Shown here: one piece after another, positions 1,310 through 23,922 of the stretch | How the letters are laid out: each line of letters opens with the position of its first letter | Numbering within the stretch: position 1 is the first letter of the stretch | Origin: Methanothrix sp. | GTDB taxonomy: Archaea; Halobacteriota; Methanosarcinia; Methanotrichales; Methanotrichaceae | Direction of reading: 5' to 3' | NCBI GenBank assembly: GCA_963682135.1 | Contig: OY821645.1 | Span: forward strand, 800,001-864,000 | DNA length: 64,000 nt | Notes under the pieces: generated by a model | Database searches by the model: none | Told to the model about the DNA's origin: nothing | Seen by the model: the letters and a program-made list of their open reading frames with translations, nothing else | Made by a program: the position numbers and the translations under genes

Positions 1310-2500
1310 TCAAACATTATGATAATCCCACAATCCCCAAACGGCAAGTCCGAAGCCATCTCGCCGGTCTTGATTATCGTCACAAACTGATCTCAGCCAG
1401 AGGCTTTTAACCAGCTCTTCTGCATCTCCTGACAAGACCTCAAAGAAATAAACTGAGCCTGCAGGAACAAGCCTTCTAATTGCCTTCGGTCCGCGGCTGC
1501 CTTTCTCGAGGCTCCAGCCAGAGATCGGCTTCCAGCGATCGGTGCAGGCGGAGACAAGCTTTAGCTTCAAATCCTTAGGCCAAAAATCAGGCAATTTCCC
1601 TTCCTGCCAACCATCCAGCCATCCTGGCCTCCAGTCACCGGAGAAGATCGCAGGAGTTGCCAATATCATGCGAACTTTTTTCTTACCGGACAGTGCTTTT
1701 GCCACTTCATCAGGGCAGCTCCAGCCTCTATGAGAATTATCCAATTTCCACTGAGCTAATCGGCGTTCGCCGCCTATAGTATGAAATGTTTCGACCATCC
1801 TTTTTGGATATCCAACATCTTTTTCAAATTCTGCTCGTGCAGCCAGTTGAATACCATCTTTTTGATTTTTTATTGATAGATCGAGCCCTATCGTCTCGAA
1901 GAGCATTCTTTCTTTGGACGCACCTCGACTGGGATCTATCCAGATGTGGGTCCGTTGGTCTTTCTGTGGCAAGCTGCAAAAACCATCTCCGTCTTTGACA
2001 TTATCCGGCTCTGGTGGGGCATTAAAAGACTCACCTTTGGAATTTATGAGCCATCTAGTTATCATTTCCATAGACCAAAAGCCTGGGATTCTTGCAGGTT
2101 TGAAGTCCTTTTGCATGCTATCAGGAAGCATTGCAGGAAGAAGGCCTTCAGGCAAATCACATCCTTCTCCATCCTTCAGGTTTGCCGGACGAATTGCATA
2201 GGCTTGACGCTTGCATTTTTCATCCTTTACTAAGATATCCTTTGGTGACGGAATAAAAATCTGCCCTTTTATTAATGGCAGAGGCCCTGAGACCTGAATA
2301 GTCTTTAGCTCTTTAACCCTATTCTCATCGAATGCACCACCATTGATCTTTCCTAGCATTGTTCGAATAGATCCGGAGAGGACTGAGGGATATGGCCAGT
2401 CAAGGGATCTCATCCGAATTCCCTGCCCGACCCCGAATGGTCGCCCATCTCTGGCAATGACAGGATCATGAGGAGTTATGGATAAAAAAACAACATTCAT
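1310..2500 (-). CDS. cmr3: Type III-B RAMP Cmr3 (Cas5 family)
   Basis: 'DPVIARDGRPF', 'IGGERR', 'LATPAIF', 'VPAGSVYF', 'DGFGL' motifs; operon position. Confidence 0.93.
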   Translation of the reverse strand: MNVVFLSITPHDPVIARDGRPFGVGQGIRMRSLDWPYPSVLSGSIRTMLGKINGGAFDENRVKELKTIQVSGPLPLIKGQIFIPSPKDILVKDEKCKRQAYAIRPANLKDGEGCDLPEGLLPAMLPDSMQKDFKPARIPGFWSMEMITRWLINSKGESFNAPPEPDNVKDGDGFCSLPQKDQRTHIWIDPSRGASKERMLFETIGLDLSIKNQKDGIQLAARAEFEKDVGYPKRMVETFHTIGGERRLAQWKLDNSHRGWSCPDEVAKALSGKKKVRMILATPAIFSGDWRPGWLDGWQEGKLPDFWPKDLKLKLVSACTDRWKPISGWSLEKGSRGPKAIRRLVPAGSVYFFEVLSGDAEELVKSLWLRSVCDDNQDRRDGFGLAVWGLWDYHNV

Positions 2501-4338
2501 GCAGATTCCTCCTTCTTGATTTGATCACTGATCTGTCTTTTTACCTCTGCTATGCTTCTTGCGAGAACCAGTTCCTCTGCTCGGCGAACAAGATCGTCAT
2601 GGGATGTTACGTCTTTCATTAATTTGTCGATATCTTCTTTGTCGATCTCATTCGCTCCATGGCCTGATCTTTTTTGCCTAAGCAGTCGTTCTACATCTTT
2701 TGGGATCAGGTTCTGGGATACCAAAGCCCAATCTCTGTAATCATCTGCAAGAAGACGCAAGTCGTAAGCTGCTTTATCAGGGAACTTGTCCAACTGATAC
2801 ATCTCGACCCATTCTCCCATCCTTTCGTCCAGCCCGTTCTGGCCTGTTGGTCTCCATCGTTCTCTGATCTTAATCGGATCCCCGCCGCTTCTTGTGTGAA
2901 GATTTACAGATAGGCCATTTCTGTCGGGATATTTGGCTGATTTCTCGGCAGCCCTTCCATATTCAAGAAGATCCTCCAGAGGTTCCATCGAATGACCAAT
3001 GGCGACTCCAACTGACAAAGTTGGTATTTCGCCTCCTAAATCCTTACTAGAATCCTTAAGCAGGTTCTCAAAAGCATCGTGGAGATCTCTTGCAGCTCCA
3101 AGACAATGGTCCACAGGAATAAAAGCTAATACATCATCGCCGCCAGAGTATACCATGCAACCCCGATGGTCATCCTCAACAATCCACCGAGCTTTGATGG
3201 CAAATTTTGCCAGTTGGCCCGAGAACTCTTTGTGCTTCTCTTTTGATTTTATATTGGAAAGGGCCTTTCCCATTTGATCCCCATCGGCGACTAGCATTGC
3301 AAGATATGGACCAGGCTCGCCTAATCTCTTCCAAAGCTCGATCGTCTTCTTTTGAATCAGATCGAGCGTCTTTAAATCGCCTTTGAAAAGACTATCCTCA
3401 TCCGAATCAATTAGAGCATTTTTTAAGACCTCCTTTACTCTGGAAAGACGTGATGGATAGAATATTTGTCCATCGAATGGAAAGTCCTGGTATACCCTTT
3501 TTCCAGTGCCGCTAGAGAAGCTATTAGTTCCTTCGCACAGTATTTTTATTTCGTTAATGATTCGATTGGCGTCCTCATTTTGATCTCCAGCTATCCCTCT
3601 AAGCCATGGATCAAGAGCTACGCGGATTACTGAAGGAAATGCTATTCTTTGGCCACCGAGCCTCTTAGTCAATCCAACAGCACAGAGCTGCTCCCCATCA
3701 TTCAAACGCATCTGGAGAGAGAGTTCTTTTGGAATCGAACGATCTTTTTTGAGAATGCTCTCCCTTGCACCATCAAGCGATGATTTTGGAATGCCCGCCA
3801 GACCTTTTGCGGGTCTGAAATCACGAATGGACTTCCTGCCTGCCAAAAGGCGCATGACTCTTGATCGAGTATCTTGATAGTCATCAGTTAAAGGAGTCCA
3901 GGCAGCATAGAATTCTATGACGTCATCAATCTGATTATCCCAGATCTCTGGATGGATTGCCGCCCCTGCTTTATCCCTTGCCTCTTCGGCATAATGCATC
4001 CATTCCTCTTGAGCAGCAGTCTTTGCCTTTAAATTGAGTTCAGAAGGTTTTAGTTTCATGCCATCAGGCAGCTCTGCCAGAACTACGTTAGCTACATTAA
4101 AGGCATAAATCCTTTTATCAAGTGGCAATTTATAGGAGGATTCAAGGTCAGGATCTCCGCATACCAGCGCAGGAAATATTAGATTTCCTCCAGCTTCAGC
4201 CACCGTTCTGGCAGCTGCTTTGCTTATTTCTGAAAGAAGATGCGATCCGAACCAAAGATCCCTTGTCCTTCTTGCTGCCGAAATGAAGTCCTGAACAGGT
4301 CCGATTGATAGAACGTAAAGATACGAAGTCAAGATCAC
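2497..4338 (-). CDS. cas10: Cas10/Cmr2 large subunit, Palm GGDD intact, no N-terminal HD domain
   Basis: Begins directly with 'SIGPVQDFISAARRTRDLWFGSHLLS'; 'ADGDQMG' and 'YSGGDDVLAF' palm motifs; 613 aa. Confidence 0.95.
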   Translation of the reverse strand: MILTSYLYVLSIGPVQDFISAARRTRDLWFGSHLLSEISKAAARTVAEAGGNLIFPALVCGDPDLESSYKLPLDKRIYAFNVANVVLAELPDGMKLKPSELNLKAKTAAQEEWMHYAEEARDKAGAAIHPEIWDNQIDDVIEFYAAWTPLTDDYQDTRSRVMRLLAGRKSIRDFRPAKGLAGIPKSSLDGARESILKKDRSIPKELSLQMRLNDGEQLCAVGLTKRLGGQRIAFPSVIRVALDPWLRGIAGDQNEDANRIINEIKILCEGTNSFSSGTGKRVYQDFPFDGQIFYPSRLSRVKEVLKNALIDSDEDSLFKGDLKTLDLIQKKTIELWKRLGEPGPYLAMLVADGDQMGKALSNIKSKEKHKEFSGQLAKFAIKARWIVEDDHRGCMVYSGGDDVLAFIPVDHCLGAARDLHDAFENLLKDSSKDLGGEIPTLSVGVAIGHSMEPLEDLLEYGRAAEKSAKYPDRNGLSVNLHTRSGGDPIKIRERWRPTGQNGLDERMGEWVEMYQLDKFPDKAAYDLRLLADDYRDWALVSQNLIPKDVERLLRQKRSGHGANEIDKEDIDKLMKDVTSHDDLVRRAEELVLARSIAEVKRQISDQIKKEESA

Positions 4339-5627
4339 ACCTCCCGGAATTTATTCTCTTTAGCAAAGGCGAGGAATCCTTCAATTGCTGAGCCCGATGG
4401 AGAACGTGCGGGCTGACCGGGCCTTGGGCTTCCCAGAGGCGATTGCGGGTAAGCGCTAAGCATCGGATCTCGTATTTTCTTGGACCTGGGGCTTCCAGAT
4501 GCCTTTTTCAGGACGACTTCATCCGGAGAATGCGCCCTTAAGCAGAGAATCATCTGCTGCACCTCTCCGTTTTGACAGACAATAGGCCTTAAAATAATGG
4601 GGCTTGCCATTCTCGTCATCTCCTGGCCATTTACTATCGGATAGAGTTCGGTATCTTTAGGATCATTATGGTCCTTGAAATGGAAGACTATGGGCAGACC
4701 AAGCTCAGCTCTGGGAAATGCATCGTTTGGAATTCCCGGCATTCTGGAATGCTTCGGTTCCCGTTGAGATGTCTCTTTCCTTATCGTTTCTGGCTCGGGC
4801 CATCTTGACCGCCCAGGACGGTTAGGAGCCGTTCCGGGATTTCTGCCAGTATTCTGACCCTGCCTGAATGTCTGCATAAGGCTCACTACGTCATTCCACG
4901 CTTGCATTGCGCTGTTGCTGCTCTTGACAAGCAATGCATCGGGAAGTATTGGCCATTGCCTTGTCTGAGGCAGAACGACGCCGAAGTTTTGAAGACAATC
5001 TTTATACCAGGAGCCGATGCGTGATGCATCTGGAGGAGAAAGTTCATGGCAATAAAGTGCCCCGCAGCCTCTTCTAGCGCGAGCGCCTGCTCCTCCAAAG
5101 TTGGTCCAGGCCCAGACGGCTGCATCCACATCTGCGGAGAGGTTTGCAGGATAAATTAATTTCAACTCAAAGGAGACCTTTGAGGTGCATTCTGCAATGG
5201 CAGTGCCTTCTTTTTTATTTCCCTGGAAAGGAAAGAGCGCGTATCCTGGATGGTTTTCCTTGAATTTGGCGAAATTCTTTCCTTCAGGGATGTGCGCACA
5301 TGGATAGGTTATCCCTTGCGATTTTATTGTGACCTCAACGATCACCTGGCTGGGGTTATCGGTTTTGCCCCAGATTTCACCTTCAGACTGGCGAAGCTCG
5401 GCGACAGAAATGCATTTTGCAGCGCCCCGTGTCATTCTCCAAAAAGACCGTAGGTTTCCTCTGATGCTTGATGGGCGAATGAGTGTCACAAGATCGTTTT
5501 CGCTTGATTCGACACCTCCTCCAAAAATTGGTGTTATCACATCGATGCTATAAACCCTTCGAATCTTGTTCGGCTGGGAATCTATATTTAAAGGTTTTCC
5601 AAAGCATTTTGGAATGCTACGATTCAT
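4335..5627 (-). CDS. cmr1: Type III-B RAMP Cmr1
   Basis: 'VITPIFGGG', 'IRPSSIRGNLRSFWR', 'FGGAGARARRGCG', 'RMASPIIL'; ATG at 5627 preceded by GGAGTG. Confidence 0.93.
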   Translation of the reverse strand: MNRSIPKCFGKPLNIDSQPNKIRRVYSIDVITPIFGGGVESSENDLVTLIRPSSIRGNLRSFWRMTRGAAKCISVAELRQSEGEIWGKTDNPSQVIVEVTIKSQGITYPCAHIPEGKNFAKFKENHPGYALFPFQGNKKEGTAIAECTSKVSFELKLIYPANLSADVDAAVWAWTNFGGAGARARRGCGALYCHELSPPDASRIGSWYKDCLQNFGVVLPQTRQWPILPDALLVKSSNSAMQAWNDVVSLMQTFRQGQNTGRNPGTAPNRPGRSRWPEPETIRKETSQREPKHSRMPGIPNDAFPRAELGLPIVFHFKDHNDPKDTELYPIVNGQEMTRMASPIILRPIVCQNGEVQQMILCLRAHSPDEVVLKKASGSPRSKKIRDPMLSAYPQSPLGSPRPGQPARSPSGSAIEGFLAFAKENKFREV

Positions 5628-5766
5628 AGTCACACTCCCTTCAATTTGCATGATTCAAGGCTACTCCACCAACGATCCCATTGCAGCATTAAATTATTCT
5701 CACTCCTCTTTAAGGATCAGATAATTTAGCTTAATATTAGGTGATCCGCAATGTCGTATGCAATTG

Positions 5767-5802
5767 AAAAAATGGTGCATTTTTTCTCATTCTAATGCAC
5801 CA
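5767..5802 (-). terminator. Hairpin plus T6 terminator of the small peptide gene
   Basis: Perfect 9-bp inverted repeat TGGTGCATT (5773-5781) / AATGCACCA (5794-5802), followed on the minus strand by TTTTTT (5772-5767). Confidence 0.7.
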
Positions 5803-5959
5803 CTATGGAAACATGTACGGATATATCAATAGGCTTTGCAAGATTGGCCAAAAAAATAACGTTAAGCATAAACGCTAAAAACCCATTCAAGTATTTAGCG
5901 ATGGCCGATCGAGTCTCAAATTCGTTATGTATTCTATTGTTTTGTTTTTTCCTTTTCAT
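5792..5959 (-). CDS. Unannotated 55-aa membrane peptide, candidate CRISPR-repressed toxin (MKRKKQNNRIHNEFETRSAIAKYLNGFLAFMLNVIFLANLAKPIDISVHVSIVVH)
   Basis: Hand-translated, below the ORF-track cutoff. SD AGGTGAT (5969-5963) is complementary to the 16S 3' end in this window; has its own TATA box and terminator; basic N-terminus plus a hydrophobic stretch of about 19 aa. Confidence 0.7.
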   Translation of the reverse strand: MKRKKQNNRIHNEFETRSAIAKYLNGFLAFMLNVIFLANLAKPIDISVHVSIVVH

Positions 5960-6020
5960 GCTATCACCTTTAGGGCAGCTTTTAATTAGGCCCTATAATT
6001 GATTATTATCGAGTTCCTAG

Positions 6021-6036
6021 TATATAACAATTTTGC
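6021..6036 (-). promoter_or_regulatory. BRE/TATA promoter for the 55-aa peptide gene
   Basis: Minus strand reads GCAAAATTGTTATATA; predicted TSS near 5998, about 40 nt before the ATG. Confidence 0.6.
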
Positions 6037-6081
6037 ATAACTGTAGTGATCAAGCCAAATTAATATATGCATGCCTTTAAG

Positions 6082-6161
6082 AAAAAAATTGGACGAATTT
6101 TAGACTCGATCGCCCATCATAACGGTTTCAATGGGGCCGCGAATCTATTTTATCGCGGAAT
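6082..6161 (-). CRISPR. Solitary CRISPR repeat + 36-nt spacer + T7 tract (crRNA-like regulatory RNA)
   Basis: 37-nt repeat ATTCCGCGATAAAATAGATTCGCGGCCCCATTGAAAC (6161-6125) with CCGCGA/TCGCGG stem and canonical ATTGAAAC handle; spacer 6124-6089; TTTTTTT at 6088-6082; no second repeat found. Confidence 0.8.
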
Positions 6162-6183
6162 GAGTTTGTATTATTTTCAATCC

Positions 6184-6199
6184 TATATCAGTCTTTCGT
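6184..6199 (-). promoter_or_regulatory. Putative BRE/TATA promoter for the repeat-spacer RNA
   Basis: Minus strand reads ACGAAAGACTGATATA; the TATA-like element lies about 25 nt upstream of the first repeat base (6161). Confidence 0.5.
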
Positions 6200-6243
6200 C
6201 CACGACTTGACTATGCCCTCATAAGTCTTAAATTGGGCTTTCG

Positions 6244-6363
6244 GCTATCTCGCCGCCCGCTCACGCCCCCGCCTGCCCGTGCCCGCCCGCGTGCGCTTGC
6301 GCGTAGCCGGGAAGGGCGCGCGTGTGGCCCAGGGCGCGTGGAGCGTGCTCTTGCCGCCAATTC
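6244..6363. repeat. GC-rich dispersed element, copy 1
   Basis: Starts GCTATCT and ends TTGCCGCCAATTC; similar termini at 44428-44583 and a similar start (inverted) at 23922. Confidence 0.4.
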
Positions 6364-8700: not shown

Positions 8701-8844
8701 AGCCGCAAGCCGCAAAATCAAACTGCGCGCGGCCCTCCATCCAGAGAGGTGGTGGAATGCTTCGGGCTGCGCGCCCGGTTATCCGGATTTAAATATTATC
8801 GAACAATTGCGCCGTGCATTGCAAACAGATTAATGAGGTATTCA

Positions 8845-10458
8845 ATGAAGACATTATGCATAATTTTGGCAGCATTGATATGCTTGCCTATATTGGCTTT
8901 TGCCGCTGCTGATAGCAAGGTTACTGGATCAGATAATAGTTCGCTTGATTCTATCTTAGACCAATCTACCATAGATTCTTTAGCCCGAGAAAGTGAAGTC
9001 AGCAACTTCTTTCAAGGAATAAGGAATAACCCGGAAGAACTCAGGGCCTTCTTTTTATCCATGCCTAAGGGAGGAGATATCCACAATCACCTGACAGGAG
9101 CGGTTTACGCCGAGGACCTCATCGACGCAGCATCCTCGGAGAGACTGTGCATCTATTCAAACAACTACACGGTCACCAACTGCACAGGATCGCAAAATAC
9201 GATACCATTGAGCCAGGCTTATGGAAACGAACGGTTCTACAATAGCATAGTAGATACCTGGTCAATGAAAAACTCAGAGTTATTGAACGTCAGCGGCCAT
9301 GACCAGTTCTTCTCCACGTTCGGGCGTTTTGGCGGTGCTACAAAAAATACGAGCCTCCTGGTGGCAGAGTTGCGTTCAAGAGCAGCTATCGATAACATAG
9401 AGTACCTGGAACTCATGACTGGCGTGAACACAAGCAGTAAGGCATCTAGCTTGGGGAATTGGAGTGAAAACCTCAGCCACTACTATGATGATCTCATTAA
9501 GGGAGGTCTGAGGGAGCTGGCCAAGGAAGCTTCCATAAATCTGAGAGAAATCGATGCCAAATCCATAAAGATTCTTGATGCCGGCGACCCAGGCAGGAAT
9601 GTTACAGTCAAATACCTGTGTACCGTTTCCAGGATCAAGCCGAAAAAAGAGGTCTTCGCTCAGCTTGCCCTCGCCTTCGAGGTGGCAAATATGTCTCCTC
9701 TAGCAGTGGGCATCAATATTCTGAGCGCTGAGGACAACAGAACCGCCAGGGAAGACTACTCATTGCATATGAAAATGATCGACTTCCTGCACGGAAAATA
9801 TCCCAATGTAAAGATTGCTCTGCACGCAGGGGAGCTGGAACTGGGACTGGTTCCACCCGAGGACCTCAGGTTCCATATCCAGGAGGCCGTTGAGGTGGGA
9901 CACGCTTCGAGGATAGGCCATGGAGTGGATATCATGAGGGAAACCAATTCCCAGAAGACCTTATCTGAGATGAGTAAGGATAAGGTAGCGGTGGAGATCA
10001 TGCCGGTGAGCAACAAGGAGATCCTGGGGGTCTCCGGAGAAGATCACCCGTTTCCAATCTACCTGAGCCGTGGGGTACCCATCGTCCTGGCCAGCGATGA
10101 CCCTGGAGTTTTGAGGACCGATCTGACTGAGCAATTCGTGATCATCGCCAGCGACTACCCGCAGGTGAGCTATTCGGATATCAAGACTTTTGCAAGAAAT
10201 AGCCTGGAGTACAGCTTCTTGCGTGGCGAAGGAATCTGGGAGGCGGCAGGGAATTACTCGCAGATGAGGAAGGAGTGTGCAGAATGCCGTGCCAGCACTG
10301 AATGCAAAGAGTGCAGGGCATTTTTGGATAAGAACGATAAGGCTAGAGCCGAATGGAGGCTTGAGGGAGATCTGGCTCTCTTTGAGAGTGGAGTCTATAA
10401 TTGGACAGCACTTAGCGGAAATGGGAATCAAAGGGGCTTCTCCATCCATGAGACCTAG
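8845..10458 (+). CDS. Secreted adenosine/AMP deaminase family protein
   Basis: Signal peptide MKTLCIILAALICLPILAFA; metal-binding motifs HNHLTG, HAGE, RIGHG, SDDP. Confidence 0.85.
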   Translation: MKTLCIILAALICLPILAFAAADSKVTGSDNSSLDSILDQSTIDSLARESEVSNFFQGIRNNPEELRAFFLSMPKGGDIHNHLTGAVYAEDLIDAASSERLCIYSNNYTVTNCTGSQNTIPLSQAYGNERFYNSIVDTWSMKNSELLNVSGHDQFFSTFGRFGGATKNTSLLVAELRSRAAIDNIEYLELMTGVNTSSKASSLGNWSENLSHYYDDLIKGGLRELAKEASINLREIDAKSIKILDAGDPGRNVTVKYLCTVSRIKPKKEVFAQLALAFEVANMSPLAVGINILSAEDNRTAREDYSLHMKMIDFLHGKYPNVKIALHAGELELGLVPPEDLRFHIQEAVEVGHASRIGHGVDIMRETNSQKTLSEMSKDKVAVEIMPVSNKEILGVSGEDHPFPIYLSRGVPIVLASDDPGVLRTDLTEQFVIIASDYPQVSYSDIKTFARNSLEYSFLRGEGIWEAAGNYSQMRKECAECRASTECKECRAFLDKNDKARAEWRLEGDLALFESGVYNWTALSGNGNQRGFSIHET

Positions 10459-10603
10459 AGATGGCGAGTATATCAACGCCTAGGTAATAAAGCCAAATTG
10501 AGATGGGTGTGGGATGGCAACTTCCATCCATCCCATTCATCTGATAATCTCCAGGTTCAGATACCAAAAGCCTTTTAGGATTGTTCTCTAATAATAAGCA
10601 ACT

Positions 10604-11851
10604 ATGATTGGAAGATCCGGCAGATATTTGCTGGCGCTCATGTTTATCAGCCTCTGCGTGGTTGCAGCCCCTGCAAAATCCTCGGACGACTATTGGGATG
10701 CGTGGGTAACATTGACCACGACCGATTCTGCGACAATCAACTGGCGCGGCGAGGAAGATGGGTCCGGCTCGATAGACTACGCTACATCAAGCTACTTCGA
10801 TACGCATCATCGCTATGAAAAAACCATAGCAACAACAAAGGCAGCGACATATCAGCACGTCCGGCTGAGCGGACTTAATCCCAATACGTCCTACACCTAC
10901 CGGGTAACTCCATCCGGCAGGGATGAGCCGTTTTCTAACCGCACCTTCCGGACGATGCCAGAGAGCGGACCGTTCACATTTATCGTATTCAGCGACCCCC
11001 AAAAAGCCAGCGAATATGAGGAGAAACAGCGGTTCAAGTACGTTGCAGACGCCATTGAAAAGGAGCCGGATATACTATTCATACTAATTGGAGGGGATTA
11101 TAATGGGCATGATAGCGATGGACTGTGGAGCCAGTTCTTCCAGGTAGCGGACGGAATGCTCGCCAAAAATGCGATCTTCCCAACCATCGGAAACCACGAG
11201 TACCATAACTCCAGCGGTGGAGACAATCCGCCAACGCCGGCCAATCACTTCCACTGGGCCTTCGATATCCCCCTGAACTACTCCTTTGACTGCTCAGGGG
11301 TCCGGTTCATCGTCCTCAACACCCCGGACCCAAATAATGCCAACGGCGATGATCCTCACACATCTCTGGCTCTGGCCAAAAGCCAGGAGCCCTGGCTGAG
11401 AGAGCGACTGGACAATGATACGCTTCGAGGAGCGTTCACCATTCACCACCATCCGGTCTGGGATTACTACAATGCCACCAGCAACCCGGACCTGGAGCCA
11501 TGGGAGAGCCTTTACCACACCTATAACATCAGCGCCAACTTCGCAGGCCACACCCATAATTACCAGAGGTACTCGATAGAGGGAATTCCCTATTTCATTG
11601 TCGGCAATGCTGGTGGCAGGTGCGCCGGCCTGACCGGCGATAGCGCCCCCGCGGGCTACATCTTCGGCATGAATAAGACGCTGGGATATCTTAAGGTGGC
11701 TGTAGACCCGGCAAAAAACACCGCAACCGCAGAGGAGTGGATCGTGGCAACCGTCAAGGAGGATGACTCCAAAGAGAAACCGGATGTATTCGAGAACCCG
11801 AAAATGATCGACAGCATTACGTTTTCTCTCAAGAAGCAATCAATGGTGTAA
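10604..11851 (+). CDS. Secreted purple acid phosphatase-like metallophosphoesterase with FN3-like N-terminal domain
   Basis: Signal peptide; 'LSGLNPNTSYTYRV'; SD, GGD, GNHE, HHP and GHTH motifs. Confidence 0.88.
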   Translation: MIGRSGRYLLALMFISLCVVAAPAKSSDDYWDAWVTLTTTDSATINWRGEEDGSGSIDYATSSYFDTHHRYEKTIATTKAATYQHVRLSGLNPNTSYTYRVTPSGRDEPFSNRTFRTMPESGPFTFIVFSDPQKASEYEEKQRFKYVADAIEKEPDILFILIGGDYNGHDSDGLWSQFFQVADGMLAKNAIFPTIGNHEYHNSSGGDNPPTPANHFHWAFDIPLNYSFDCSGVRFIVLNTPDPNNANGDDPHTSLALAKSQEPWLRERLDNDTLRGAFTIHHHPVWDYYNATSNPDLEPWESLYHTYNISANFAGHTHNYQRYSIEGIPYFIVGNAGGRCAGLTGDSAPAGYIFGMNKTLGYLKVAVDPAKNTATAEEWIVATVKEDDSKEKPDVFENPKMIDSITFSLKKQSMV

Positions 11852-11941
11852 TGCTGTTAGCGGCCGTCTCACTAGCAGCCCCCCACTGCAAAGGCCCGTA
11901 ATGCGCTCAGTCGATACTGAAAGCCATTCCGATCATCCATT

Positions 11942-12643
11942 CTATTTCCGTCCCAGGTAGAGCCGGCATACATCAGGATTGTCCAGCAGGCTTTTGGCAG
12001 GCCCCTCAAGCCGGTTCTTGCCCATCTCCATGACATATCCCCGGTCGCTGATGGCCAGAGCCCTGCGGGCGTTCTGCTCGACCATAAGTATGGTCACGCC
12101 CCGCCGGTTGATCTCCTGGATCTCGGAGAAGAGCTGGCCCATGATCTTTGGGGAGAGCGCAGCAGAAGGTTCGTCCAAAAGCAGCATGGACGGGCCGACT
12201 ATCATGGCTCTTCCCACCGCCAGCATCTTCTGCTCGCCGCCGCTGAGGGTTCCAGCCCTCTGATCCATTCGGCTCGCCAGCGCCGGAAAGAGCTCCAGGA
12301 CCATGGATATTCGTTCCTCAATTCCGCCCGAAAGAGCGATGGCTCCCATCTCCAGGTTTTCCTTTACGGTCAATTCCGGGAATACATTCCGCTCCTGGGG
12401 AACATAGGAAAGGCCTCTCTTTACAAGCTGGTCAGGCCTCAATCCGGTGATATCCTGGCCCTGAAATAGAATTCTTCCCCCACGCATCCTGGTCAGTCCG
12501 AAGATGGACTTCATAAGAGTCGACTTTCCGCAGCCGTTCGGCCCGATGATGGTCACGATCTCTCCCTTGTCTACCCGGAGAGAGACCTCGCTGATGATGT
12601 TCTCATCGGTATAGCCGGCAGTGATTGATTCAAGGCTGAGCAT
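11942..12643 (-). CDS. livF: Branched-chain amino acid-type ABC transporter ATPase
   Basis: GPNGCGKST, LSGGEQKM, LLLDEPS, VEQN. Confidence 0.9.
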   Translation of the reverse strand: MLSLESITAGYTDENIISEVSLRVDKGEIVTIIGPNGCGKSTLMKSIFGLTRMRGGRILFQGQDITGLRPDQLVKRGLSYVPQERNVFPELTVKENLEMGAIALSGGIEERISMVLELFPALASRMDQRAGTLSGGEQKMLAVGRAMIVGPSMLLLDEPSAALSPKIMGQLFSEIQEINRRGVTILMVEQNARRALAISDRGYVMEMGKNRLEGPAKSLLDNPDVCRLYLGRK

Positions 12644-13409
12644 CAGATCCCACACCCAGGTAAGCCTCAAAGACCCGCGAATCGGAGATGACCTCATCAG
12701 GCGGGCCGCTTGCCAGTATCGATCCCTTGTTCAGGACGTACAGCTCATCAGAGAGAGCAAGCACATAGGGAATGGCATGCTCTATTATCATTATCGTGAG
12801 CCCGTTTTTACGCAGCAGCTTGATCTTCTCAATGAGCCTCTCGGACAGCGCCGGATTGACACCGGCAAAAGGCTCGTCGAGCAGCAGCAGCCTGGGGTCG
12901 GCCATCAGGGCTCGGGCCATCTCCAGCATCTTCTTCTGGCCGCCGGACAGCGATCCGGCATACTCGTCTTTCATGCGCAAAATATCAAAGAATTTCAATA
13001 TCTCCACGGCTTTATTCTCAATAGATATCTCTTCTGCCTGGACCTTGCCACGGCGGATGATGTTCGCAAAGATATTTTCCCCAACCTGATTTTGGCCACC
13101 CAACATCATATTCTCCAAAACGGTCATCCTCATCAGAGCTCGGGGTATCTGAAAGGTGCGAATCAGACCCAAGCGAGCAATCTCATAGGCAGGCAGACCC
13201 ACAATCTCCCTGCCCGAAAAGATGATGCTTCCGCTGTCCGGGCTTACAAAGCCGGATATCAGGTCGAAGAGAGTGCTCTTGCCGGCTCCATTGGGCCCGA
13301 TGAGGCCCACAATCGTTCCTTCCTGGACGGAAAGGCTACAGCCGTCTACAGCTAAGAGGCCGCCGAATCCTTTTCTTACTCCTTCTATCCTGAGGATTTC
13401 ATCTGCCAA
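12630..13409 (-). CDS. livG: Branched-chain amino acid-type ABC transporter ATPase
   Basis: GPNGAGKST, RTFQ, LSGGQ, LLDEP, C-terminal 'VFEAYLG'. Confidence 0.9.
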   Translation of the reverse strand: MADEILRIEGVRKGFGGLLAVDGCSLSVQEGTIVGLIGPNGAGKSTLFDLISGFVSPDSGSIIFSGREIVGLPAYEIARLGLIRTFQIPRALMRMTVLENMMLGGQNQVGENIFANIIRRGKVQAEEISIENKAVEILKFFDILRMKDEYAGSLSGGQKKMLEMARALMADPRLLLLDEPFAGVNPALSERLIEKIKLLRKNGLTIMIIEHAIPYVLALSDELYVLNKGSILASGPPDEVISDSRVFEAYLGVGSDAQP

Positions 13410-17744: not shown

Positions 17745-19848
17745 AAGAGCGTACGCCATTGAAAAGACTATAAATGCGTACAGCATGGCTCTCCAAAATG
17801 AGCAAGACCTAATAGAAAAAGCCCGTATCCAGGAAAAAATCGCAGACAATTATTATGAGCTTTCCCTTGTCAAGATTGAAGATCGAAGATCCTGTCTACT
17901 AGAATCCATAGAGGCCTATCAGGAGGCTCTCGAGATCAGAACCCCGGATAGTTTCCCGAGAGATTATGCCAGAATACAAAACAATTTTGGGGCTATATAT
18001 CATACTCTGGCCCAGGTCGAGGACAAGGCCAAGAATTGCCATGAGGCTATCAAGGCCTACCAGGAGGCCCTAAAGATCCGCACTCTAGATGATTTCCCAT
18101 TGGATTATGCCAGGACGCAAAACAATCTCGGTAATGCATACGGCACTCTGGCCCAGGTCGAGGACAAGGCCAAGAATTGCAATGAGGCTATCAAGGCCTG
18201 CCAAGAGGCTCTAAAGATCCGCACTCTCGATGATTTCCCATTGGATTATGCCAGGACGCAAAGCAATCTCGGTAATGCATACGGCACTCTGGCCCAGGTC
18301 GAGGACAAGGCCAAAAACTGCCAAAAGGCTATCAAGGCCTACCAGGAGGCTCTAAAGATCCGCACTCTCGATGATTTCCCATTGGATTATGCCAGGACGC
18401 AAAGCAATCTCGGTAATGCATATCATACTCTGGCCCAGGTCGAGGACAAAGCCAAAAACTGCCAAAAGGCTATAGAGGCCTACCAGGAGGCTCTAAAGAT
18501 TCGCACTCTCGACGATTTCCCATTGGATTATGCCAGGACGCAAGACAATCTCGGTAATGCATACGGCACTCTGGCCCAGGTCGAGGACAAAGCCAAGAAT
18601 TGCCAAGAGGCTATCAAGGCCTGCCAGGAGGCTCTAAAGATCCGCATTCTCGATGATTTCCCATTGGATTATGCCAGGACGCAAAGCAATCTCGGTAATG
18701 CATACGGCACTCTGGCCCAGGTCGAGGACAAAGCCAAGAATTGCCAAGAGGCTATCAAGGCCTGCCAGGAGGCTCTAAAGATCCGCACTCTCGATGATTT
18801 CCCATTGGATTATGCCAGGACGCAAAGCAATCTCGGTAATGCATATCATACTCTGGCCCAGGTCGAGGACAAAGCTAAAAACTGCCAAAAGGCGATAGAG
18901 GCCTACCAGAAGGCTCTAAAGATTCGCACTCTCGACGATTTCCCATTGGATTATGCCAGGACGCAAGACAATCTCGGTAATGCATACGGCACTCTGGCCC
19001 AGGTCGAGGACAAAGCCAAAAACTCCCAAAAGGCTATCAAGGCCTGCCAGGAGGCTCTAAAGATCCGCACTCTCGACGATTTCCCATTGGATTATGCCAG
19101 GACGCAAAGCAATCTCGGCAATGTATACGTCACTCTGGCCCAGGTCGAGGACAAAGCCAAAAACTCCCAAAAGGCTATCAAGGCCTACCAGGAGGCTCTA
19201 AAGATCCGCACTCTCGATGATTTCCCATTGGATTATGCCAGGACGCAAAGCAATCTCGGTAATGCATACGTCACTCTGGCCCAGATCGAGGACAAAGCCA
19301 AAAACTGCCAAAAGGCTATCAAGGCCTACCAGGAGGCTCTAAAGATCCGCACTCTCGATGATTTCCCATTGGATTATGCCAGGACGCAAAGCAATCTCGG
19401 CAACGCATATCATACTCTGGCCCAGGTCGAGGACAAAGCCAAAAACTGCCAAAAGGCTATCAAGGCCTACCAGGAGGCTCTAAAGATCCGCACTCTTGAC
19501 GATTTCCCATTGGATTATGCCAGGACGCAAGACCATCTCGGTAATGCATACGGAACACTAGCCGAGGTCGAGGACAAGGCCAAGAATTGTCAAGAAGCTA
19601 TCAAGGCCTATCAGGAAGCACTCAAGATTCGCACTCTCGACGATTTCCCCATAGATTATGCAGAGACACAGACCATTCTTGGATCTGTGTACAAAACTCT
19701 GGCTGAAGCTGAAAACAAGATGGATAATTTCAGGAGAGCCAAGCAGGCATATGTGCAAGCGATTGAGACCTTGACTAAGCTGGAATTGCCAGAGATTAAA
19801 AAGTCGGTTGAAGATAAGCTATCCGAATTGGATTTTATCTGCCGCTAG
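17734..19848 (+). CDS. TPR-like protein with near-identical 47-aa tandem repeats
   Basis: 11 near-identical plus 2 degenerate copies of LDDFPLDYARTQxNLGNAYxTLAQVEDKAKNCxxAIKAYQEALKIRT. Confidence 0.9.
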   Translation: MTIKRAYAIEKTINAYSMALQNEQDLIEKARIQEKIADNYYELSLVKIEDRRSCLLESIEAYQEALEIRTPDSFPRDYARIQNNFGAIYHTLAQVEDKAKNCHEAIKAYQEALKIRTLDDFPLDYARTQNNLGNAYGTLAQVEDKAKNCNEAIKACQEALKIRTLDDFPLDYARTQSNLGNAYGTLAQVEDKAKNCQKAIKAYQEALKIRTLDDFPLDYARTQSNLGNAYHTLAQVEDKAKNCQKAIEAYQEALKIRTLDDFPLDYARTQDNLGNAYGTLAQVEDKAKNCQEAIKACQEALKIRILDDFPLDYARTQSNLGNAYGTLAQVEDKAKNCQEAIKACQEALKIRTLDDFPLDYARTQSNLGNAYHTLAQVEDKAKNCQKAIEAYQKALKIRTLDDFPLDYARTQDNLGNAYGTLAQVEDKAKNSQKAIKACQEALKIRTLDDFPLDYARTQSNLGNVYVTLAQVEDKAKNSQKAIKAYQEALKIRTLDDFPLDYARTQSNLGNAYVTLAQIEDKAKNCQKAIKAYQEALKIRTLDDFPLDYARTQSNLGNAYHTLAQVEDKAKNCQKAIKAYQEALKIRTLDDFPLDYARTQDHLGNAYGTLAEVEDKAKNCQEAIKAYQEALKIRTLDDFPIDYAETQTILGSVYKTLAEAENKMDNFRRAKQAYVQAIETLTKLELPEIKKSVEDKLSELDFICR
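17944..19700 (+). repeat. 141-bp coding tandem repeat
   Basis: 'gatttcccattggattatgcc' recurs at 18091, 18232 and onward with a period of 141. Confidence 0.95.
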
Positions 19849-21974: not shown

Positions 21975-22046
21975 TGCCGCACGCGTGGACTCGCGCCCGC
22001 GTGTGGGGGCCCGGCTGCGCTCGTGGGCCTGGGCTGTGGGGCACGC
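21975..22046. repeat. GC-rich dispersed element interrupted by IS630 (continues at about 23305-23330)
   Basis: 24-nt TGGGGGCCCGGCTGCGCTCGTGGG at 22004-22027 is identical to 23873-23896. Confidence 0.65.
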
Positions 22047-23824: not shown

Positions 23825-23922
23825 GGTCACGCATAGCCCCGGCTGCGGCCAACAGGGGCGCGCGTCCGTGCATGGGGGCCCGGCTGCGCTCGTGGGGATG
23901 CTGCAAAGGGGGCTGAGATAGC
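23825..23922. repeat. GC-rich dispersed element copy downstream of hicA
   Basis: Shares the 24-nt core and GCAAAGGGGGC with the IS-interrupted copy; ends AGATAGC (reverse complement GCTATCT). Confidence 0.6.

Follow-up and report, generated by a model that had tools for sequence, protein, structure and literature searches.

A solo CRISPR repeat upstream of an archaeal cmr operon carries a guide whose mismatch pattern suggests Cmr cleavage of a small-peptide mRNA without Cas10 signalling

CreTA, first described in the type I-B system of Haloarcula hispanica, relies on an RNA from a solo CRISPR repeat whose partial, seed-proximal match lets Cascade repress a toxin (PMC9458426; PMC12948488). CreR and other CRISPR RNA (crRNA)-like RNAs, the crlRNAs, use solo or mini-array repeats in a similar way to guide Cas effectors to host genes, and the cases treated in the portions of PMC12948488 drawn on here involve DNA-binding effectors at promoters. 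Here, we describe a solo repeat in a 64,000-nucleotide stretch of Methanothrix DNA (contig OY821645.1, positions 800,001 to 864,000 of the forward strand; the window), which is followed by a guide, a small hydrophobic open reading frame (ORF) and then cmr1, the first gene of a type III-B operon. This arrangement is referred to as the module, and positions are those of the window unless another locus is named. An earlier note on this DNA had proposed that the mismatches between guide and target allow Cmr to cut the messenger RNA (mRNA) without activating Cas10.

The module resembles CreTA in having an ectopic repeat beside a cas operon, a pseudo-spacer that partly matches the adjacent candidate toxin gene, a partial match that would give repression without the destructive immune step, and a patchy occurrence among related loci (PMC9458426). 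It differs from CreTA, as presented in the available portions of that work, in that Cmr would serve as the effector, repression would act after transcription, and the target is an mRNA (in its coding region or ribosome-binding site) rather than promoter DNA. The match also has the opposite polarity, being absent next to the handle and present distally; Cas10 signalling by cyclic oligoadenylate (cOA), instead of Cas3 recruitment, would be the step avoided; and the candidate toxin is a hydrophobic peptide, whereas that of CreTA is a tRNA-sequestering RNA. A type III guard built on a solo repeat is the class that a published survey of repeat-like elements sought without success; within the portions used here, that survey reports for type III loci neither positional conservation nor enriched Cas10 clades, nor any targets, and considers these mini-arrays probably degraded (bioRxiv 10.1101/2023.03.03.530964). 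The literature searched, the supplementary mini-array lists of the survey (Shmakov et al.) aside, yielded no published type III CreTA or crlRNA, and in a December 2025 review of the coupling of CRISPR with toxin–antitoxin systems, ‘type III’ denotes only toxin–antitoxin classes in the seven of its eight occurrences covered.

The pairing rules for type III guides come from other organisms. In the Cmr complex of Thermus thermophilus the guide is organised in segments (nucleotides (nt) 1–5, 7–11, 13–17 and so on) with every sixth base unpaired; binding and cleavage depend on the 3′ segments, and cOA synthesis needs pairing at nt 1–5 and nt 7, where mismatches abolish it (PMC8376896). A type III-A study places the Cas10-activating region at +1 to +7 (PMC9704408). 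The rule invoked in the earlier note, 5′ pairing for cOA and 3′ segments for cleavage, is therefore a published one, and the natural loci described below reproduce the map known from T. thermophilus Cmr and Staphylococcus epidermidis Csm. The published mismatches were designed for in vitro or diagnostic use, whereas those reported here belong to an evolved and conserved genomic pair.

The solo repeat, 37 nt long, lies on the minus strand at 6125–6161 and consists of a hairpin (CCGCGA..TCGCGG), then CCCC, then the 8-nt handle ATTGAAAC at 6125–6132 (plus strand GTTTCAAT). The 36-nt pseudo-spacer, or guide, runs from 6124 to 6089 on the same strand and reads CGUUAU GAUGGGCGAUCGAGUCUAAAAUUCGU CCAA; its nucleotides are numbered from the end of the handle. 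Guide nt 7–32 are antisense to the minus-strand transcript of 5900–5925, the two forming a 26-nt inverted repeat with 24 matches, and the sole mismatches fall at nt 12 and nt 24. Guide nt 1–6 are nearly unpaired, with one Watson–Crick pair (nt 3) and one G–U pair (nt 6), and nt 33–36 are unpaired. The earlier note had read the pairing of nt 1–32 in the same way; direct reading and a script agree on the two mismatches, and the nearly unpaired first segment was reproduced. The target site as a whole occupies 5894–5929 on the minus strand, that is, nt 31–66 or codons 11–22 of ORF55, a frame for a 55-residue peptide at 5792–5959.

When the register was slid by −6 to +6, 7–13 pairs formed versus 24 in register. 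On both strands of the 3,043,341-bp genome that holds the window (G000), the 26-nt core matches no site other than itself better than the ORF55 target (24/26), and the runners-up reach 19/26 once and 18/26 four times; this gap excludes a chance match.

Equivalent modules were compared across six lineages, kin to one another, which fall into two unrelated guide/target families, T1 (four lineages) and T2 (genomes G053 and G346). Nucleotides 1–5, the first segment, are unpaired in 26 of 30 cells and nt 7 in 4 of 6. Every sixth position (6n) behaves differently from its neighbours: nt 12, 18, 24 and 30 are unpaired in 5, 3, 6 and 0 of six lineages, respectively (14/24 together), versus 9/132 for the other positions of nt 7–32. 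Segments 3–5 (nt 13–17, 19–23 and 25–29) are almost completely paired, with 2 of 90 cells unpaired, as are nt 31–32 (0/12); beyond them, nt 33–36 are unpaired in 18 of 24 cells, and pairing ends at nt 32–33 in every lineage. Mismatches thus concentrate at 6n positions and in the first segment, the outcome that the earlier note had proposed looking for in homologues. Fisher's test of the 6n positions against the rest gives p = 2.7e-8, which overstates the evidence because the lineages are related and not independent. Restricting the count to G000, G053 and G346, the last two of which share one family, leaves 6/12 at 6n positions versus 4/66 elsewhere, and in a five-lineage table the positions of nt 7–32 unpaired in at least three of five are exactly 7, 12, 18 and 24. 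A 6-nt periodicity phased from the handle is therefore present, as it would also be for type I guides. In T1 the 6n positions face first codon positions (ORF nt 37, 43, 49 and 55), so the mismatches are not accounted for by wobble or synonymous drift on the target side.

Guide and target have also changed together. Alignment A5 of T1 comprises five distinct sequences, and 84.6% of its cells are paired; in it, 7 of 26 pairs are changed on both sides, compared with a shuffle mean of 3.0 and 4 of 500 shuffles as high. Scored for covariation, the alignment reaches 0.242 versus 0.107 ± 0.030 in shuffles (none of 500 as high), and slid registers give at most 0.108. Over the 21 non-6n positions of nt 8–32, cognate T1 guides and targets pair at 20–21 positions and diverged non-cognate combinations at 16–18; the corresponding T2 values are 18 and 21 for cognate pairs and 15 for non-cognate ones. 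Segments 3–5 remain paired through compensatory changes on both the guide and the target side.

Among 392 genomes of the class, 20 carry this Cmr1 (13 of the 59 in the genus), and the module lies directly upstream of cmr1 on the same strand in six of the 20 (G000, G009, G070, G051, G053 and G346), a count that leaves out another Cmr1 copy in G009, which is split and lies on contig C7 (L160, L163). A DNA search of the genus recovered the whole module in 3 of 59 genomes (G000, G009 and G070). A peptide-profile search of the 392 genomes gave seven with a match at E ≤ 0.01, of which four are real modules, including a diverged copy revealed in G051; the weak matches in G165, G176 and G201 have E-values of 0.002–0.007, and two of them lie inside a 206-residue frame with a stop. 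The profile also retrieved three further metagenome contigs close to G009. The module of G053 was found by scanning upstream of cmr1 for a handle whose next 36 nt are antisense to nearby sequence, and that of G346, a member of a different genus with ATTGAAAA as its handle, by searching the G346 locus alone for inverted repeats. The handle patterns used upstream of cmr1 miss variant handles, and the other module-less calls rest on a reading of the upstream DNA, which is limited in two loci (207 nt in G369, a run of N in G073). In most module-less relatives the end of csb2 is within ∼100 nt of cmr1, and in G051 and G053 the module is placed between a csb2 remnant or end and cmr1. The module thus resembles a cassette that has been inserted into, or deleted from, a single site.

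The guide in each of the six lineages runs antisense to the sense strand of a small ORF that is conserved and has a Shine–Dalgarno (SD) sequence. The T1 target covers codons 11–22 of a 55–58-residue peptide, whereas in T2 the target site spans the SD and the start codon of the frame for a hydrophobic peptide of 29–31 residues. The T2 guides of G053 and G346 are homologous to each other (22/36 identical) and unrelated to the T1 guides. The ORF55 peptide has a basic N-terminus and a hydrophobic helix, and its AlphaFold2 model is one helix spanning residues 2–54 (predicted local distance difference test score 73). The T1 frame is open in four diverged lineages at 35–47% identity, with a Kyte–Doolittle 19-residue maximum of 1.44–2.11 and dN/dS mostly of 0.34–0.72. 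The T2 peptide likewise has a single hydrophobic helix. Pfam, NCBIfam and Rfam contain no family matching either peptide, and T1 is a tiny family, with 10 matches at E ≤ 1e-3 among 1.84 billion representatives. By analogy of size and hydrophobicity, both peptides are candidate toxins.

Marker matches (NrpR and a family-B DNA polymerase) identify the genome as archaeal, so TATA-like boxes and oligo-T runs, rather than a sigma-70 scan, are the signals that count. The scan for sigma-70 promoters and bacterial terminators was indeed uninformative, and the 12-nt loop of the putative ORF55 terminator exceeds its loop limit. A TATA-like box, CTGATATAGGA, at 6181–6191 (minus strand) upstream of the solo repeat is a candidate promoter for the guide RNA; the block is kept in G000, G009 and G070 (alignment A2) and appears as GATATAGAA in G051 and G053. 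Transcription in archaea terminates at oligo-T, and a T7 run directly 3′ of the guide (6082–6088, minus strand) is a candidate terminator, standing where a second repeat would be looked for and none is present. Runs of T6–T9 occupy the same spot in G009, L139, G070 and G346, and a T5 run lies ∼20–25 nt later in G051 and G053. The ORF55 gene has its own putative signals on the minus strand: a conserved block, ATGCAAAATTGTTATATACTAGG, with a TATA box at 6016–6038 (alignments A2 and A5), a likely promoter; an SD-like AGGTGA at 5964–5969, 4 nt ahead of the ATG and part of a GGTG[A/G]TA motif kept in all T1 loci; and, at 5766–5801, a hairpin over the stop codon (GGTGCATT..AATGCACC) followed by ATTTTTTC, read as a candidate terminator from the sequence and from A2, in which the hairpin arms show compensatory changes in G009 and G070.

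The repeat itself is also conserved in structure. Its hairpin folds at −9.1 kcal/mol and is preserved by compensatory changes in four relatives; a match to the Rfam CRISPR-DR16 model at 6125–6163 is weak (18.4 bits, E 0.29, under the gathering score). The 17-nt end of the repeat occurs once in the 3.04-Mb genome. The handle is the same in five lineages and, its 5′ end being taken from the sequence, identical to that of the host array repeats. CRISPR arrays of three classes are present in the genome, every class ending in ATTGAAAC: one beside the type I-B genes with Cas6b, one beside the type I-G genes with Csb2 (a Cas5/6 fusion), and one orphan array. The Cmr operon has neither an array nor a cas6 of its own and must therefore draw on crRNAs with the ATTGAAAC handle. 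The Cas6 Pfam profiles PF01881 and PF10040 gave no match across the genome and no Cas6 lies within the cmr operon; Cas6b and Csb2 are the Cas6-type enzymes encoded, both at a distance.

The operon predicts a Cmr complex with both Cas10 and the Cas7 RNase. All its genes in the window are on the minus strand: cmr1 at 4335–5651 (TIGR01894, E 1.6e-17), cas10/cmr2 at 2497–4338 (613 residues), cmr3 at 1310–2500, cmr4, the Cas7 backbone RNase, at 359–1303 and cmr5 at 4–501, with cmr3 and cmr5 assigned by domain-library matches. Left of the window the operon continues with cmr6, so cmr1–6 are all present, and with a Card1-type CARF nuclease in which both the CARF and nuclease domains are matched. Cmr4 carries the motif IDLPIIRE, whose Asp we take to be the catalytic residue. 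The motif aligns with IDLPIQRE of the Cmr4 in PDB 3x1l. Cas10 of G000 had no HD-domain match in the domain-library search. Its GGDD motif is intact (YSGGDDVLAF), as the earlier note had recognised, and is kept in Cas10 of all module-bearing genomes checked (G000, G009, G070, G051 and G053).

Taken together, the module very probably encodes a functional guide–target pair of the Cmr type. The full model, in which Cmr cuts without signalling and thereby guards a toxin as a type III-B, RNA-level counterpart of CreTA, is given a probability of about 0.6. According to this model, the solo repeat with its TATA-like box and oligo-T stop would yield a short pre-crRNA-like RNA, which a host Cas6-type enzyme (Cas6b and the type I-G Csb2 being the candidates) would cut to leave the 8-nt AUUGAAAC handle. 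The RNA would then enter Cmr and be trimmed to ∼40 nt (8 + 32). The end of pairing at nt 32–33 would fit such a 40-nt mature crRNA, a size among those reported for T. thermophilus Cmr (PMC8376896). Guide nt 8–32, including the 3′ seed segments, would pair with the sense mRNA of the adjacent hydrophobic peptide gene, and Cmr4 would cut or at least block it, keeping the peptide off while Cmr is present. With nt 1–5, and usually nt 7, unpaired in the Cas10-activating region, Cas10 would stay silent despite its intact GGDD. Upon loss or inhibition of Cmr the peptide would be made and the cell harmed, a release that would render the cmr operon addictive or act as a tripwire against anti-CRISPR inhibitors. 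That Cmr continuously destroys the mRNA of a membrane-peptide toxin without cOA, through a naturally evolved regulatory guide serving as RNA-level addiction or as an anti-anti-CRISPR guard, with the modules as swappable cassettes in which one repeat goes with two unrelated guide–toxin pairs, is favoured by a slight margin over its negation.

The earlier note had further suggested that the 3′ flank of the target could add anti-tag protection. Plus-strand 5882–5890 (CCCATTCAA) does resemble the repeat end at 8 of 9 positions; the resemblance is one base off the handle register and occurs in G000 and G070 only. In register, handle and flank pair at 4 of 8 positions in G000 (two Watson–Crick and two G–U), which is chance level, and across five lineages (G346 left out) the counts of 4, 3, 4, 1 and 3 of 8 are at chance as well. 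Anti-tag protection was thus rejected as a conserved feature, while the other elements of the cut-without-signal reading, a Cmr-type guide with 6n positions spared and the 5′ segment unpaired, are strongly supported in six lineages and two families. Because handle and flank match no better than chance, a target paired along its whole length would be treated as non-self and switch on Cas10. The unpaired first segment would then be the only visible safeguard against Card1 self-activation, which would explain why its mismatches are never repaired, in contrast to the maintained pairing elsewhere in the duplex. A comparable outcome has been engineered in Sulfolobales, where crRNAs direct the native type III complex to a host mRNA, which is cut with cOA signalling and DNA interference suppressed (PMC7951960). 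According to the parts of that report used here, suppression there depends on pairing of the handle with the 3′ flank (PAS), whereas here it would depend on the unpaired first segment.

Several points weigh against the cut-without-signal model. Mismatches outside 6n positions occur at nt 9 (G070), nt 16 (L139), nt 25 (G051 and G053) and nt 10–11 (G053), and some 6n positions show no drift: pairing is seen at nt 30 in six of six lineages and at nt 6 in four. The cell counts, like the Fisher test, overstate the evidence, as four T1 and two T2 lineages are related, and the distribution is narrow, being confined to one archaeal family. The cmr1 gene of G053 (L152, G053:C96) has one in-frame TGA, for which a sequencing error, a pseudogene and recoding are all candidate explanations. 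The stem of the solo repeat differs from every array repeat in G000, G009 and G070, and with no Cas6 in the operon, processing would rest on the distant Cas6b or Csb2. The dN/dS values of the T1 peptide, one pair reaching 1.09, suggest weak constraint. The Cas10-activating-region rule was measured in other systems, the Thermus Cmr and Csm complexes. Finally, the transcription, 5′ end, processing and loading of the guide RNA, the cleavage of the mRNA, the absence of cOA and the toxicity of the peptide are all predictions from sequence.

The alternative that comes nearest, though it is unlikely, is a CreR-like feedback. The small-ORF transcript would then form the leader of the cmr mRNA, high levels of Cmr would bring down cmr expression through guide-directed cutting there, and the peptide would be incidental or serve some other purpose. 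The position of the module, directly upstream of cmr1 and on its strand in 6/6 genomes, would suit such a loop, and T-run termination in archaea is often leaky. Against it, a conserved hairpin and T-run separate the ORF from cmr1, and related cmr operons lying directly after csb2 work without the module. Moreover, two unrelated hydrophobic ORFs are kept open and the T2 guide lies over both the SD and the start codon of its peptide frame, which points to the peptide itself as the thing controlled. An ordinary type I toxin–antitoxin pair, with a repeat-derived antisense RNA that blocks or destabilises the toxin mRNA independently of Cmr, appears quite improbable. The layout is classic for that class: a trans-encoded antisense RNA (∼25 nt, over the ribosome-binding site in T2) faces the mRNA of a peptide of fewer than 60 residues with a single hydrophobic helix. 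The antisense here is a CRISPR repeat–spacer unit, however, and the 6-nt phasing of mismatches from the handle, which a plain duplex does not predict, points to a Cas7-bound guide. Nor does a plain duplex predict the unpaired nt 1–5 next to a conserved 8-nt handle, the compensated repeat hairpin or the strict linkage to cmr1. A cis hairpin does not predict the phasing from a conserved handle either, and T-runs separate the two arms.

Canonical CreTA-type control, with the I-B or I-G Cascade carrying the RNA to DNA and blocking transcription, is very improbable. The I-B and I-G crRNAs of the genome carry the same handle, every sixth base is flipped in Cascade too, and several relatives have the module placed between cmr1 and csb2 of the I-G system. 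But Cascade needs a PAM (protospacer-adjacent motif)-proximal seed at nt 1–5, 7 and 8, which is where nt 1–5 and nt 7 are mostly unpaired, and the PAM-side triplets vary (GTA, GCA, GCA, GCA, GAA and AGC). The antisense orientation of the guide to the mRNA holds in every lineage, and the target site lies inside the transcribed region, not at a promoter. The view in the earlier note that the pattern argues against type I DNA targeting is borne out by these observations. Least probable of all, at a few chances in a hundred at most, is that the module has no function, the guide being a decaying self-targeting spacer from a former array, or the inverted repeat being structural or due to chance. The survey cited above lends this some weight, in that it judged type III mini-arrays probably degraded and target-less in the portions used. 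The match is, however, unique in the genome, the module is kept where intergenic DNA is only ∼70% identical, compensatory changes are found in two families, and the promoter- and terminator-like elements are conserved.

If Cmr does cut without signalling at these loci, crRNA-like self-regulation and CreTA guarding would extend from the DNA binders of types I, II and V to type III. The Cas10-activating-region rule, so far biochemical, would gain evolutionary support in vivo, and the six natural guide–target pairs would serve as a mutational map in which nt 1–5 and 7 concern signalling, 6n positions are free and nt 13–29 are essential. The loci also suggest a design for type III knock-down that avoids collateral signalling by 5′-segment mismatches in place of handle-complementary flanks, and they bear on how type III loci persist in genomes or resist inhibitors.

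Further observations concern repeats and arrays elsewhere. A genome-contig scan with CGCGGCCCNATTGAAAC gave at least 120 stretches, nearly all of them chance matches; among the matches listed, only L096 (which is G009) is relevant, and true arrays with a similar repeat end occur in L042, L045 and L124 (three metagenome-assembled genome records). The orphan array, with 11 repeats and the ATTGAAAC handle (L005, G000:C1:2940001-2960000, 9565–10450), has no cas genes within 9 kb; one of its spacers is tandemly duplicated and an IS605/TnpB-type gene is nearby. The type I-B array (L003, G000:C1:2275001-2295000, 8865–13170) contains two insertions of ∼1.67 kb encoding IS110-family transposases, and cas8b is apparently split into two ORFs (L136:702-1706 and L003:18806-19705).

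Around the cmr loci, other small genes of toxin–antitoxin type cluster: a metagenome contig has a HepT/nucleotidyltransferase pair upstream of its module (L138 252–1071), and G000 has a DUF4258 protein and a Csx3 fragment left of Card1 (L002 14726–15058). G+C-rich repeats (GCCCGC/GCGCG-rich) flank the cmr locus at 6240–6360, 21987–22027 and 23856–23896 and recur several times to its left (L002 12300–15600). In relatives, DNA like these stretches forms the 3′ part of csb2, so in G000 they may be remnants of a type I-G operon that formerly lay next to cmr. On the plus strand at 8749–10458, 2.6 kb from the cmr operon, a 569-residue protein has an adenosine-deaminase domain at residues 279–492 and an N-terminal half with no domain assignment. 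The deaminase part alone matches the CRISPR-associated adenosine deaminases 9c67 (E 1.8e-9) and 9ebt (E 3e-4) weakly, and the protein may be a Cad1-like cOA effector. Finally, 17901–19762 holds twelve head-to-tail units of 141 nt, 81–86% identical except for the last (68%), and is probably a repetitive coding region.

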